Origin: Escherichia phage vB_EcoP_phi346
Length of the DNA stretch: 63,554 nucleotides
Reading direction: 5' to 3' (one strand)
Sequence record: PV189404.1
Below are positions 30,001 through 36,000 of the stretch, piece after piece. How positions within the stretch are numbered: the stretch's first letter is position 1; every line of letters starts with the position of its first letter. A program made the position numbers.

Positions 30001-33000
30001 TCAATTCTGTGAGTACGGCGTTCATTTTTTTCTCCTGATATTTTAATGTCGGTGGGGGTGTTATGCGATTGGTGAGGTGTCAGCTTCTTCTACCAGCTTT
30101 TCCAGTTCATCCAGCTTTCGGGAAAGAATTTCACCAAACAGATGAAGTTCTGTATCTGCTGTGATCGGGATCGGAACAAAGCGTATTCCACTTCTGGCAA
30201 GTTGATTTGCGATTTCCAGGCACTGCCTTAATTCAACTGGTGATGCCTTTGTCAACGTCGTTTTTTCGCTCATTGGTTTTCTCCAGAAATTTAACAATAC
30301 CCGGAACCATCTCAATGGATGGTGTTCCGCATTGGTTACCCCAGACATCAAATCCATGCGAGGTGTGACGGGCGAACAGTTCTATCCGGGGAACATCGCC
30401 AAGAAGTTGCACAAGTTTTTCTCGCGCCATATCCGGCTTGCGGGAGTGATCAAGGCGCGGTGCAGTGAATGACTGGATTATTCCGGCGTTAATGCGTTCA
30501 GGCAGATTTCCTTTCACTGCAAAAAGGCAGTCTTCGCTGTTAGCGCGAGTGGTGCTACCCATACCCATGACCAGCTTGTCGGTCTGTCTTTTCCCGCATT
30601 TGTTCCAGGTTAATCCTTTCATCGTCACCAGACGAAAGCCCCACGCTTCTACAACCTTCAATGCTTCAAGTGGTTGTGTAGGCACCCACCACATAGCCAA
30701 CAGGCAATTATCGGCTGCCAGTTCCCATACCGGGAGGCGGCAGATATCCAGAAGACTCATGACCGGATATTTAAAACTTGCACCGCGTTGACCATCGGTT
30801 GCTTTGTCTCGGAATGTCCAGGGGGGATCTGCGTAAATGAGAGTGTATTTTTTCGTCATAGCGCGTTTTCAAACTCATCAATGTAAAGTCCTGCTTTAAT
30901 CAGTCGGCGACGGCGTTCGGCCTTTTGCACGTATTCCTCGCGACAGTTTTTTGCTGCGTGTTCACGGCTTCTGCGACTGAATGGAGGAACGGCATTGCGT
31001 GAGCGAGGTGTGTCACGACGAGGATTTGATTCGAGGGAGAAAAAGCGATCAACGATTCCGGTGTCTGTGGTGAATGGTTCTGAAGCCTTTATTTTCACAA
31101 CCTTACTGCCCTTTGTCAGGCCGCGAGCTACCTTGTTGAACTCGCAAAGTGAAACACCAAATTTCTCTGCTATTTCACTGCCAGTAACAGGACGACCACG
31201 AGACTGAATCATCCAGGTGACGCGTTCTTTTAACCCACGGAAGGCACCGGGCCTTCCAGAACGCCTGTAGAAAGCGATCTGTTTCAAATTTTTGTCTCCA
31301 GATATGAAAACCCCGACGGGATGTCGGGGATGGTAGGGGAAGTTACAGGCTTAACGAGAAGCCTTTTCGGGAATTTCGATCTGACAGTCTTGAAATATCC
31401 TGTAGCGTGCGGCGCATTTCTTCCGTCAGATGTTTGAAGGCGTTAAATTCAGCGACAGCCGCATCGACGTTATAGCCCTTGCTGTGTAGTTCGTTGAGGA
31501 TACGCATGGTTGGGCTTGGCATGTCGAAGAGTACAGAAACGTCCAGGTTAAGAGTTTTTCGATCAACATAGCTCATCATGGAGTAGGGGTGGTGCTCTGA
31601 AAACCACGATAGAGGGTAGTTGATAGATAGTGTTGATTCTGGAAGCTGAAGTTGTTCTGGGATTTTTTGACTGAAATAGCAGTCTTCCAGTTTTTCGAAC
31701 ACTTCCCACGCCCGATCGGTTTCGAGCATTTTTGCGTGACGGGCTGCGCCGCGTTCTGTCCAGAGGATGAGGGAGCGAACGTTACGGGCGATTTTCACAG
31801 AGTAGTTAAAAGCTACTCTGTGCTTGAACTCACGTAAAGTTTCACCTTCAAGTTTGAAGAAGTGTTTTTCCTCAATGAAACGACCTTTGTTTTCGTGGTG
31901 ATTCTGGCGAATACGAATAGCTTCTGTGCCGTAAAGGTGCGCCAAAAGTTCGGTAGTGATAACGGGGATCTGCTTGTAAGTAATCGTGGAGAGTGTTTCA
32001 ACAGAAACTTGAGTTGTCATTATGACGCCCTCGAGTGGTTTCTAAACTATCACCACCGTTAGGTTCGAATCATCGGGTGGTGAGACGTACAGGGTTCGAA
32101 CTACCGGGAAACCAACCGGCGAGCTTTTCAGCTCCCCTATACGCCCCACCATAATTCAGATGTGCGCGTGCATACGACAATAAAAAACACGCTCGCGGCG
32201 TGTCTCTGTCGCGGTTTCTATCCGGGGTTCGAATCCCGACGGTCAACTCGACCGTGCGAAGAATATAATCCCGGATATGTGTTGTCGTCAACAAGTGGCG
32301 TGCTATCATCGAATAGTGTTCTATCCTACTCAGTGAGGTTTAACATGCGTACAACCCAACAATTCAGCATTACATTAACCAACGAAATGGCTGACATGGT
32401 GCGCGCCCGTGTGGCTTCCGGTGCATACGCTTCAGAAAGCGAAGTTATTCGTGAAGGGCTTCGTGCACTGAATGAACGCGACAAAGCAATGGAAGCGTGG
32501 TTAATACACTCAGCCGCGCCGCCACTCGACGCTATTCGTGAGAACCTAGGCAAAGGGCACTCCATTTCACAGGTTCGCTCTGAGATTCGCGCCCGGAACT
32601 AATCTGCATGGCATATGAAGTGCCACACTAACAAACTGCTCCAGGTATGGGAATAGTGTCACTTGCAGCACCTATTAGAGATCCGATAATGAACATCATA
32701 GCAAGGTTCTTTTATTTGATAATTTTCTGCATGGCAACATCAGGATGCACTACCACTACGAAAATAAATCGCGGAGATGAAAAGGAACAGTACATCATTG
32801 CCTGTGGTGCCGCTACACCATGGGGAGTATGCTATGATAAAGCCAATGCCCTATGTAAAAATGGATATAAAGACATTTTAAAGGAACAGGGATTTAACAG
32901 GAAAGAATTAACCATTGAGTGTAAATAAGGCCATCATTTGCAACGTTGAAAAAATTCGCCCGTGCTACAGGGAAAAACTCCAGATCCGCTTCGTTTAACT

Positions 33001-36000
33001 ACGAGGATTACCACTAATGGCGATGTTTACCCCCCCTCATCCTGGAGAAATTATTGCTGATATTCTGGAAGATCAGAATATTGGAATCAGGGAACTGGCA
33101 AGAGCGCTTGATGTCGCGCCTTCCACTGTTCAGCGACTGGTTTCAGGTAATGCGACAATATCTCCTGAAATGGCTGTTCGTCTCGCTGCTGTCCTGGGGG
33201 GAACTCCGTCTTCATGGATTCGTCTCCAGACGGCATGGAGCCTTGAAAAAGCGGAAAGAGAAGTTGACGTATCTCATCTCTCAACAAAATACCGCCCGGC
33301 AGAAATTTCGCCTCATGCTTAACCACCGCGCCGTCATTCTGGCGGCGTCGGAGAGTGGAGGATATCAGGTTCCGAATTCTGCGTTGTTCTCCGCGTCCAG
33401 GATTTCTTCAATCTTCCGTACTCCCCGATTATTGTATCGGAAGCTTTCTACCTGCTTATCCGAATACGGGGATTTGTCGATGAACCATTTCCCGTATTGT
33501 TCGGTTTTGAGCATGTAGGTATTGGCAATGCGACCAACCTTGTTAGCGGATATTTTGAGTTTTGCTCCAACTTCTGACGCCGAATAGTAATGTTCATTAA
33601 TCATCGGTAGCGGGATTACGTTAGCGCCTACAACGGGATTAACCAGGCTGGCGGCAACGACTTGTTTAGCTTCAGGGGCAAGGTTGGGGAGGAAGCCGAA
33701 AAGGTCTTTCATTGTATCGACGGTCATTTTCAGCGCCCGTGCTTTACGGAATTCCTCAAGGCCGTTAGTCGAATGTTTCGAGGTGATTTTTTGTTGCAGT
33801 TGCTGTTGCATTGACTCCAGTTGATCGACCAGCGAACGACGGACGGATTTAGATTCACGAGCGGCAACCCGAAGCGCTTGTTTATAGGTCATCACAATAA
33901 CAACCTGATCCGCACCGCCTTTTTTCTTATCCATGGGGGTTACGAAAATTTCGTAACCCCCCCCCATCAAGTTCATCTTTGATGCGTGCAATGAAGTCGT
34001 TGTTGCGTACTTCTTTTTCACCGCACAGTCTCCGCGCTTCATTCACCATTTTCAACAGAGCCTGGCTGTCGATAGTTCCATTTTTCATTACATTATTTTT
34101 CATCGTTTTAACCTCTCAAGCTCGCCGTAGCGAGTTCAGATAAAAGAAATCCCCGCGAGTGCGAGGATTCTTATTCACCTTTGACCAAGTTGCAGGTTAG
34201 CCACGGTTAACCTCCTGCGGCGGTTCTGGTAGCGGCATCCAGTGAGTTGCTTGCTCAATACCATTACCCGGCTTAATCGTTGCATCTCCGCGCCGAAAGG
34301 TGCTTCCGGTATAGCGTGCGGAGCATATTAGCGGTTCAACCAGAGAGCTATCGAAATTCACCGAAATAAGCACGTTCTGGCCCTTTTCAGGCATTCGATC
34401 ACTACAGCTTATCCAACTATCCGGAGTTACCGGAGAGTTACCAGCCTCATAAGCGGATTTCATCCAGTGCGTAAGCGTTTCGATGCTTACACATCCGCAA
34501 TCAACGTCTATTTTTTCTTTTTGTTCTGACAACCATTCCTGGAATGACAGCTTGGCAGTCTGGCTTGCTGGATCAATTCGTGGCAGGCCGATATATAGTG
34601 GTACATTTCCCGGCTCCATCGAATTGTCGGGACAAATAAACGTGTTACAACCATATTTAACGAGCTCAATTCCCACTGTGTCGATAGTGGCGAATGGTTC
34701 AGTGGTCAATGCAGTCAACGCAATTTCATAAGCACGGCGCTCAATATTATCTCGCACGTCCAGGCTGCCGATTCGCTCTTTGATTTCTTTAATCATTTCT
34801 TTGTCGGTGAACGTTGTCATGTGTTAGTCCTTATCCACTTCAACGCCATCTTTCAGCGTGATGCCGTGCCAATCATCAGCCCAACTGGTTAACCCAGGCG
34901 CATCAATGCTAGGCATATAGACGCTTGCAGTGTGGTAGCCCTTATCGTTATCAATGCTGGCAACGTGCTCGCCGTTGTATGCGCTCTGAACCGCCCCGGA
35001 AATCCTGGAGACTAAACTCCCTGAGAAAGAGGTAAACAGGATGACTAAAAATACTCGTTTTTCCCCCGAAGTCCGTCAGCGGGCGATTCGTATGGTTCTG
35101 GAAAGTCAGGATGAATATGACTCACAGTGGGCGGCAATTTGTTCCATTGCCCCAAAGATTGGCTGTACGCCGGAGACTCTGCGTGTCTGGGTTCGCCAGC
35201 ATGAGCGGGATACCGGGGGCGGTGATGGTGGGCTCACCAGCGCTGAACGTCAGCGTCTGAAAGAGCTGGAACGTGAAAATCGTGAACTGCGCCGCAGTAA
35301 CGATATCCTTCGCCAGGCTTCCGCTTATTTTGCGAAGGCGGAGTTCGACCGCCTCTGGAAAAAATGATGCCACTGCTGGATAAGCTGCGTGAGCAGTACG
35401 GGGTCGGACCGGTATGCAGCGAACTGCATATTGCCCCGTCAACGTATTACCATTGTCAGCAACAGCGACATCATCCGGATAAACGCAGTGCCCGTGCGCA
35501 GCACGACGACTGGCTGAAGAGAGAGATACAGCGCGTATACGATGAAAATCATCAGGTGTACGGTGTGCGTAAAGTCTGGCGTCAGTTGTTACGGGAAGGA
35601 ATCAGGGTGGCCAGATGTACAGTGGCACGTCTCATGGCGGTTATGGGACTTGCCGGTGTTCTCCGGGGTAAAAAGGTCCGTACGACCATCAGCCGGAAAG
35701 CCGTTGCCGCAGGCGACCGCGTAAACCGTCAGTTCGTGGCAGAACGACCTGACCAGCTGTGGGTGGCTGATTTTACTTACGTCAGCACATGGCAGGGCTT
35801 CGTCTATGTGGCGTTTATCATTGATGTGTTTGCCGGATACATCGTGGGGTGGCGGGTCTCATCGTCTATGGAAACGACATTCGTGCTGGATGCGCTGGAG
35901 CAGGCGTTGTGGGCCCGTCGTCCGTCTGGCACCATCCATCACAGCGATAAAGGCTCTCAGTATGTGTCACTGGCCTATACGGAGCGACTAAAAGAAGCCG

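Follow-up and report, generated by a model that had tools for sequence, protein, structure and literature searches.

The gene island and its toxin-antitoxin remnants

We examined a small gene island in Escherichia phage vB_EcoP_phi346 (sequence record PV189404.1), taking as the window the whole 63,554-nucleotide (nt) stretch, in which three plus-strand genes stand amid minus-strand early genes: parD (32345-32602), a lipoprotein gene (32689-32928), and higA (33017-33322). The phage is an Oslovirus PA2-type Stx2a (Shiga-toxin) phage, and the region is 100% identical to the Stx2a phages VT2phi_272, PA2, and Stx2a_F765 (Oslovirus PA2). The original prediction, made from this DNA alone, had described three plus-strand open reading frames (ORFs) inside a leftward early operon, and all three were present where it had placed them. 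The flanking genes do lie on the minus strand, as it held; a single continuous operon was not found, the left neighbor being a separate isrK-C4-antirepressor unit. The island was found to consist of four patches with sharp breakpoints at 32621, 32631, approximately 32931-32935, and 32995, which hold the remnants of three toxin-antitoxin (TA) cassettes. Its features are as follows.

32345..32602, plus strand: parD, intact gene of a ParD-family ribbon-helix-helix (RHH) antitoxin, 85 amino acids (aa), toxin gone (profile scores, homologues)
32608..32621, plus strand: parE stub, the first 14 nt of parE, ATGGCATATGAAGT, reading MAYEV (alignments to intact parDE)
32631..32935, plus strand: lipoprotein cassette with a gene for 79 aa at 32689-32928 (84.6% identity to P22-like contigs)
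32931..32998, plus strand: third antitoxin stub, the last 68 nt (about 22 codons) of the helix-turn-helix (HTH) antitoxin gene of a Gp49-type pair (94.4% identity)
32995..33017, plus strand: higB stub, the last 23 nt of higB, TTAACTACGAGGATTACCACTAA, reading NYEDYH and stop (alignments to E. coli ES5 and Cronobacter)
33017..33322, plus strand: higA, intact gene of a HigA-family HTH antitoxin, 101 aa, toxin gone (TIGR02607)

Both regulators, which had been called ParD/RHH antitoxin-like and HigA-type, are true members of antitoxin families with profile scores above the curated cut-offs. The parD product scored 53.4 bits against TIGR02606 (cut-off 46.2) and 32.7 against PF03693 (cut-off 21), and its full length aligns to thousands of ParDs. 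Among the compared records and contigs (labelled L004-L041), it is 94% identical to the ParD of metagenome contig L037, where an intact 103-aa ParE follows, and 86% identical to ParDs of Salmonella and E. coli that are each followed by ParE. A Sphingomonas ParD with 64% identity also has its ParE, in a chromosomal pair without phage context, and the genes at the ParE position in all of these loci match PF05016. The Salmonella prophage ParD occupies the same place, divergent from an ORF6N gene, with a 99-aa ParE gene after 5 nt, and in Yersinia parD is whole while parE is broken into pieces of 42 and 57 aa. In the window, what remains of a parE adjacent to parD is its nt 1-14. This stub begins 5 nt past the parD stop, at the same spacing as in intact parDE, and its frame closes at TAA 32629-32631. 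The alignment to L037 runs at 91.5% identity over 32050-32621, and homology to L037, L004-L008, and L034 ends at 32621.

The two halves of ParD differ in their variation. Residues 1-47, the DNA-binding half, are the same in all relatives, although the more distant comparisons show 7-11 synonymous changes; the amino-acid changes are confined to residues 48-85, the toxin-binding half. In this second half, 6 nonsynonymous changes and 1 synonymous change separate the window protein from its closest toxin-paired relative, counts that are too small for a firm statement, and approximately one third of the positions differ from the common E. coli ParD.

The higA product scored 87.2 bits against TIGR02607 (cut-off 47.7), and its closest solved structure is the E. 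coli CFT073 HigA (2ICP; 4.7e-27). It is identical at 100 of 101 aa to the HigA of E. coli ES5, which is paired with HigB. The 99.15% contiguous alignment to ES5, where the 92-aa HigB, WP_000597785.1, is intact, begins exactly at 32995, so that directly upstream of higA and overlapping it the window holds the last 23 nt of higB. This remnant carries the ribosome-binding site of higA (GAGGA) and keeps the stop/start overlap, TAATG, and it is identical at 25 of 25 nt to the higBA locus of Cronobacter, where the gene of a 92-aa HigB runs one base into that of HigA (72% identical), divergent from an ORF6N gene. The same higB-stub junction was found in E. coli JNEC-KY176 and in L037. No counterpart of the ES5 higBA promoter region was found in the window, and higA is without a promoter and operator of its own. 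Decay of higA was noted in divergent copies of the island, with a stop at G10 in L036 and a frameshift at codon 69 in L026 and L027.

Between the lipoprotein gene and these higB nucleotides lies the remnant of a third system. Its sequence reads up to PSFATLKKFARATGK, where a 1-nt deletion in an A-run shifts the frame, and then continues as KLQIRFV and a stop. It is 94.4% identical to the 3' end of the antitoxin gene in Shigella phages 75/02 Stx and POCJ13, phage PhiR5_2, and E. coli prophages. The partner toxin of that HTH antitoxin is of the Gp49 type (PF05973), and such pairs occupy the same slot in all of those relatives; the window retains of the pair just the frameshifted last 68 nt of the antitoxin gene. 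This stub also contains, on the minus strand (32959-32971, a consensus match only), a terminator-like hairpin and T-run oriented to halt leftward transcription antisense to the lipoprotein gene and parD.

We then searched the whole window for toxins. A tblastn search with Salmonella ParE and HigB recovered none, nor did the ParE, HigB, and Gp49 profiles run against all six-frame segments of the window, the best E value across the toxin searches being approximately 0.08. The claim that neither antitoxin gene has a ParE, RelE, or HigB partner was therefore upheld across all 63.5 kb, and no conventional toxin partner turned up nearby by sensitive homology search. The reading of the two genes as orphan antitoxins also stands, with the addition that cut ends of parE and higB remain, which makes them orphans by deletion and not by design.

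The middle gene had been proposed as a small lipoprotein-like ORF. Its lipobox is present; its likeliest start is ATG 32689 and not 32647, the homologues aligning from that Met with a 20-residue signal peptide. The lipobox reads ATSG followed by C, and the signal peptide ends in MNIIARFFYLIIFCMATSG ahead of this cysteine. The lipobox Cys20 is invariant in the 41-member alignment, in which C39 is also invariant and C48, C56, and C78 are conserved in at least 90% of the homologues. The family comprises 129 cluster representatives, mostly of about 70-100 aa, as recovered by an exhaustive search; a word-indexed search had given only 3 relatives. An AlphaFold2 model (predicted local distance difference test score, pLDDT, 88) places a signal helix ahead of a beta-beta-alpha-beta-beta domain. 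No match was found among the Pfam, NCBIfam, and PADLOC profiles, including Bor and other phage lipoprotein families, and a Foldseek search of the model against the PDB gave no significant match and no RelE/ParE-like one. The sole significant viral fold match was another phage lipoprotein. The earlier statement that this ORF is not RelE-like was thus confirmed, and the idea of a cryptic toxin was rejected on the lack of a toxin profile or fold match together with the signal peptide and lipobox. From its sequence, the middle protein is predicted to be an exported, disulfide-containing lipoprotein. Because of its signal peptide, invariant lipobox cysteine, and four more conserved cysteines, it is expected to work outside the cytoplasm, where ParD and HigA could not reach it.

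The lipoprotein cassette has a different set of relatives. It is 84.6% identical to the P22-like phage contigs L030 and L031, which have the 79-aa gene in the interval from the tailspike gene to gene 16, and P22-like contigs carry this gene without ParD or HigA. Its GC content is approximately 0.39, compared to 0.48-0.56 in the neighboring genes. On these comparisons we regard the cassette as independently mobile. In a third P22-like contig, L032, an Arc/Mnt-type RHH gene (PF03869 match) directly precedes the lipoprotein gene. The interval from the tailspike gene to gene 16 that holds the lipoprotein gene (3625-4240 in L030 and 645-1135 in L032) is where P22 has immI and sieA, and upstream of the lipoprotein gene the P22-like phages have either a 121-aa ORF with a weak BamE-like match or an Arc/Mnt-type repressor gene. 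The P22-like context hints at expression in the lysogen and at a role in the envelope.

Distribution of the island and borders of the slot

We sought to place the island among its relatives and to assess how frequently its parts occur with and without toxins. The whole toxin-less island was found at 99.2-100% identity in 42 of 5426 complete E. coli genomes, including O157:H7 and O111:H8, and in 44 phage records, and its ORFs are all intact throughout these genomes and records. Genes matching parD at 80-90% identity were far more widespread (approximately 308 of the 5426 genomes), every sampled one being accompanied by a RelE/ParE-family toxin, and the match in these genomes ends at the same base as the window breakpoint (32621). 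Intact higB beside a higA of 98.8-99.1% identity was found in at least 17 of the 5426. One strain, E. coli O111:H8 05-3004, carries the toxin-less island together with an intact parDE in a second prophage (L041; record positions 3064833-3065395) and is a natural setting for cross-talk between an orphan ParD and a paralogous ParE; the ParE of this strain is WP_000220602.1. Most O157:H7 hosts have one related place per genome and no second locus. Two relatives combine an intact system with the remains of another. In E. coli JNEC-KY176, an intact Gp49-type toxin and HTH antitoxin pair is followed by the identical higB stub and orphan higA, while in contig L037 an intact parDE is followed by a 46-nt higB-higA remnant whose left breakpoint is the same as that in the window. 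No expression data on the island were found in the literature; a Salmonella lysogeny transcriptome paper names isrK and no TA genes.

The features around the island, including the borders of the slot that it fills, are listed here.

31343..32020, minus strand: left antirepressor gene, ORF6N/KilA-N-type, 225 aa (PF10543, 1e-19; phrog_1760 anti-repressor, 1.6e-122)
32073..32156, minus strand: C4 antisense RNA, with the isrK leader of the antirepressor unit (Rfam)
32182..32255, minus strand: isrK RNA (Rfam)
32262..32309, both strands: divergent promoter-like sites (consensus scan; predicted function only)
33322..33347, no strand: right slot border, common to phages with different TA cassettes
33365..34103, minus strand: right antirepressor-like gene, split into ORFs of 58 and 225 aa (phrog_1726, 1.2e-81)

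The left border of the slot is the isrK promoter region up to approximately 32291-32293. The C4/isrK pair scored 70.1 bits (RF01695) and 53 bits (RF01394), both above the gathering score, and isrK and C4 were found immediately left of a TA cassette in seven relatives from five genera (L007, L009, L022, L028, L033, L035, and L037). Motifs of the type GGTTCGAA at 32060-32240 had been considered as tRNA remnants; ARAGORN found no tRNA there, and the motifs belong to the isrK and C4 RNAs. Between isrK and parD, a plus-strand promoter-like site (TTGTCG-16-TGnTATCAT, 32282..32309) faces parD and overlaps a minus-strand one (TTGACG-18-TATATT, 32291..32262) that faces isrK. A near-palindrome, TGTTGTCGTCAACA (32280-32293), spans both -35 boxes; it was spotted by eye, and a sequence search then gave one copy in the window. 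The parD loci of E. coli, Salmonella, and Yersinia share this promoter block, and parD has a GAGG ribosome-binding site 8 nt upstream. A short-seed repeat search for operator repeats returned none.

The right border is 96% identical to the sequence just past the antitoxin stop in L028 and L035 and is contiguous with the match to L033. Beyond it, the antirepressor-like gene is split by an extra C in a C9 run (33957-33965; indel at 33957), whereas L036 and L026 have a C8 run and an intact 245-aa ORF. The C9 run is probably real, because it also occurs in the independently deposited VT2phi_272, PA2, and Stx2a_F765 records.

Several further observations concern the wider neighborhood. A scan of the window with Rfam recovered AsxR, STnc100, a tRNA trio upstream of stx, and the isrK and C4 RNA pair twice. 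An antirepressor gene comes after each of the two pairs (32073-32255 and 45341-45528, both on the minus strand), at 31343-32020 and 44639-45286, respectively, and the proteins of these two genes are alike in their C-terminal halves, which may reflect a duplicated control unit. In L007 and L022, the antirepressor gene is flanked on its far side by a sok RNA (Rfam) and a Hok_Gef-family gene (Pfam). An IS3-family insertion sequence (IS) occupies 35041-36254, about 1.7 kb to the right of the island, with orfA of 108 aa, orfB of 296 aa, and a frameshift ALIL pseudoknot at 35322-35438; the IS copies of PA2 and phi349 lie at other positions. Between the repressor region and the second isrK-C4 unit, restriction endonuclease and DNA methyltransferase genes, so named in the PA2 record, lie on the minus strand at 46147-48566.

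Explanations for the orphan antitoxins

The explanation that we favor, with a probability of roughly 0.6, is that the island records, in layers, the exchange of cassettes at a hot spot and has lost all of its toxin genes. As judged from the alignments, the orphan state of both antitoxins is caused by deletion, because only cut ends of parE and higB remain, and the length and contiguity of these alignments make it unlikely that the 14-nt and 23-nt stubs lack homology to toxin genes. The hot spot itself appears in lambdoid prophages of Enterobacterales, immediately divergent from the isrK-C4-antirepressor unit, and in relatives among E. coli, Salmonella, Cronobacter, and Yersinia prophages and Shigella phages it is filled by parDE, by higBA, or by a Gp49-type toxin with its HTH antitoxin. 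Successive illegitimate recombination would have produced the present order of parD, 14 nt of parE, the lipoprotein cassette, 68 nt of the antitoxin gene of the Gp49-type toxin, 23 nt of higB, and higA. Toxin genes would go first and leave the antitoxins behind, because loss of the antitoxin alone should be lethal, and the survivors are therefore antitoxins. A stepwise history is likely because of the intermediates seen in JNEC-KY176 and L037; the Yersinia locus, with its broken parE beside parD, is another intermediate.

Under this explanation, all three genes would be transcribed rightward from the conserved parD promoter, with the lipoprotein gene and higA riding along. ParD probably still represses that promoter, and its likely operator would overlap the -35 box of the isrK/antirepressor promoter, which it may also touch. 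HigA would be made only because the kept higB stub supplies a ribosome-binding site. Neither addiction nor abortive-infection activity would be expected, nor any killing by the module, and the one likely payload would be the lipoprotein, produced in the lysogen as a protein of the envelope. If the orphan antitoxins are of use at present, it would be in trans, against the ParE or HigB of sibling prophages.

Several points weigh against this account. The order of events is not unique and is drawn from few intermediates. The promoters of the island are consensus matches only, such a match being the sole evidence for the expression in the lysogen that the original prediction had read from gene orientation, and the five promoter-like sites in the region are not above the chance expectation from shuffled sequence (3.4 +/- 1.9). 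Furthermore, parD is intact in every copy of the island seen and higA in all of the 42 complete genomes and 44 phage records, which could reflect selection instead of a recent origin. Because the copies are 99-100% identical, the ratio of nonsynonymous to synonymous substitution rates (dN/dS) rests on 1-6 changes, and selection is not measurable from it.

Selection is the core of one alternative, in which the orphans are kept as antidotes acting in trans on the ParE or HigB of resident or competing prophages or on host TA defenses, as anti-addiction or counter-defense factors, so that the phage could infect, lysogenize, or displace rivals and yet set off no killing. Toxins cognate to the two are common in this host species and in the same slot of sibling prophages, at the frequencies given above, and the near identity of HigA to a HigB-paired protein and the coexistence of island and intact parDE in O111:H8 05-3004 fit such a role. 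It also fits that higA has come whole through at least two rearrangements and that the cut spared its ribosome-binding site. A phage orphan antitoxin active against DarTG1 provides a precedent (PMC11825919), and the authors of the phi346 report suggest this role (PMC12502783). However, two of the few divergent lineages of the island have a disrupted higA, the toxin-binding half of ParD differs from that of the common E. coli ParD and carries mostly nonsynonymous changes against its closest toxin-paired relative, and most O157:H7 hosts offer no second related locus to act on. DefenseFinder, according to the same report (PMC12502783), does not recognize either antitoxin as anti-defense. We hold this role to be tentative and rather unlikely as the reason for the island. 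A more far-reaching version, in which the slot is a battleground of sibling prophages where antidote-only phages are immune to the toxins of rivals and the lipoprotein adds exclusion at the level of the envelope, we consider doubtful; if it were true, antidote-only phages could superinfect, recombine with, or replace their rivals.

It also seems unlikely that ParD has been co-opted to serve the antirepressor unit as its maintenance repressor, like Mnt at P22 immI, with a role in lysogen stability. The divergent layout with -35 boxes overlapping on a near-palindrome would suit such a repressor, as would the invariant DNA-binding half, the conservation of the promoter block as far as Yersinia, and the Arc/Mnt-type gene directly ahead of the lipoprotein gene in a P22-like contig. 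The antirepressor unit does not need ParD, however, because unrelated cassettes fill the same slot in relatives, where higBA or the Gp49-type pair supply unrelated DNA-binding proteins. In addition, the closest homologues of ParD include chromosomal parDE pairs away from phages, such as that of Sphingomonas, and the protein matches ParD models and not Arc/Mnt. Somewhat less probable still is that the entire island is silent debris from which no protein is made in lysogeny or infection. The stubs and frameshifts do attest to decay, and early transcripts running leftward from the PL side would be antisense to the island; set against this are the promoter-like block and good ribosome-binding site of parD and the three ORFs kept open in all of the genomes and phage records that carry the island. 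The remaining suggestion of the original prediction, an unconventional effector held in check by its neighbors in a TA-like module, did not survive. The middle ORF has a length similar to that of the toxins and stands where parE follows parD and where higB precedes higA, yet this placement stems from the replacement of both toxin genes, whose ends are still visible. It encodes an exported lipoprotein, with its signal peptide, invariant lipobox cysteine, and four further conserved cysteines, on a separate cassette that occurs without ParD or HigA in P22-like phages, and it gave no RelE/ParE-like fold or profile match. A new effector controlled by one or both antitoxins is thus highly improbable.

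Comparison with known systems and significance

Compared to characterized parDE systems, such as Caulobacter ParD1-ParE1 (3KXE) and the ParD of RK2, the RHH half of the window ParD matches 3KXE (E 3e-4, residues 6-51). Those systems have a ParE, whereas the window has 14 nt of parE, and its ParD substitutions are confined to the C-terminal half. The window HigA is similar over its full length to the HigA proteins of CFT073 (2ICP/2ICT) and Proteus vulgaris (4MCX), and the toxin-first order and TAATG overlap of higBA are still visible, although higB is cut to 23 nt and neither promoter nor operator is left. Prophages of E. coli O157:H7 carry three-component paaR-paaA-parE systems, reportedly described by Hallez et al. 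in 2010, which are likewise three-gene prophage sets with an HTH protein and a small antitoxin; they end in a ParE toxin, whereas the window is without ParE and its middle gene encodes a lipoprotein.

Both P22 immI (mnt, arc, ant) and the isrK-orf45-anrP unit of Gifsy-1 (PMC4825925) also combine a small RHH gene with a divergent antirepressor unit headed by a regulatory RNA. The window has an RHH gene divergent from the antirepressor promoter, with the overlapping sites at 32262-32309, and the likeness is one of arrangement only. The window protein belongs to the ParD family and not to Arc/Mnt, the profile PF03869 was not among its Pfam matches, and unrelated cassettes replace ParD in relatives.

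Orphan antitoxins are abundant in E. coli and have been proposed as anti-addiction factors or regulators (PMC10790755), and a phage orphan antitoxin defeats DarTG1 (PMC11825919). The island resembles such counter-defense cases as toxin-unlinked antitoxin genes on a mobile element, with cognate toxins circulating in the host population. The window antitoxins are classic type II proteins left by deletion and not a dedicated enzyme, and some of their copies are inactivated. The orphan pair itself was already published in 2025. That report describes a ParD-family and a HigA-family orphan antitoxin of type II in phi346 (63,554 bp) and phi349 of Oslovirus PA2, suggests counter-defense and leaves the matter open, and states that there is no verified case of type II antitoxins serving a phage against rival elements (PMC12502783). 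The remnants of the toxin genes and of the third antitoxin gene, the derivation of the lipoprotein cassette from P22-like phages, and the shared slot beside the isrK-C4-antirepressor unit receive no mention in the available part of that paper and appear to be new detail.

The island is therefore an annotated, already published feature with an ordinary explanation. It provides a base-level example of TA decay on a phage, in which the toxin genes are excised, their antitoxins persist, and the slot is used again, and it shows three TA families repeatedly using one slot beside an antirepressor control unit. Action of the surviving antitoxins in trans on the toxins of sibling prophages is possible but unproven; if they are active in this way, they would exemplify the use of classic type II antitoxins by a phage against rival elements. 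As the island is carried by a clinically important Stx2a phage, anything that touches its lysogeny or spread is of practical interest.

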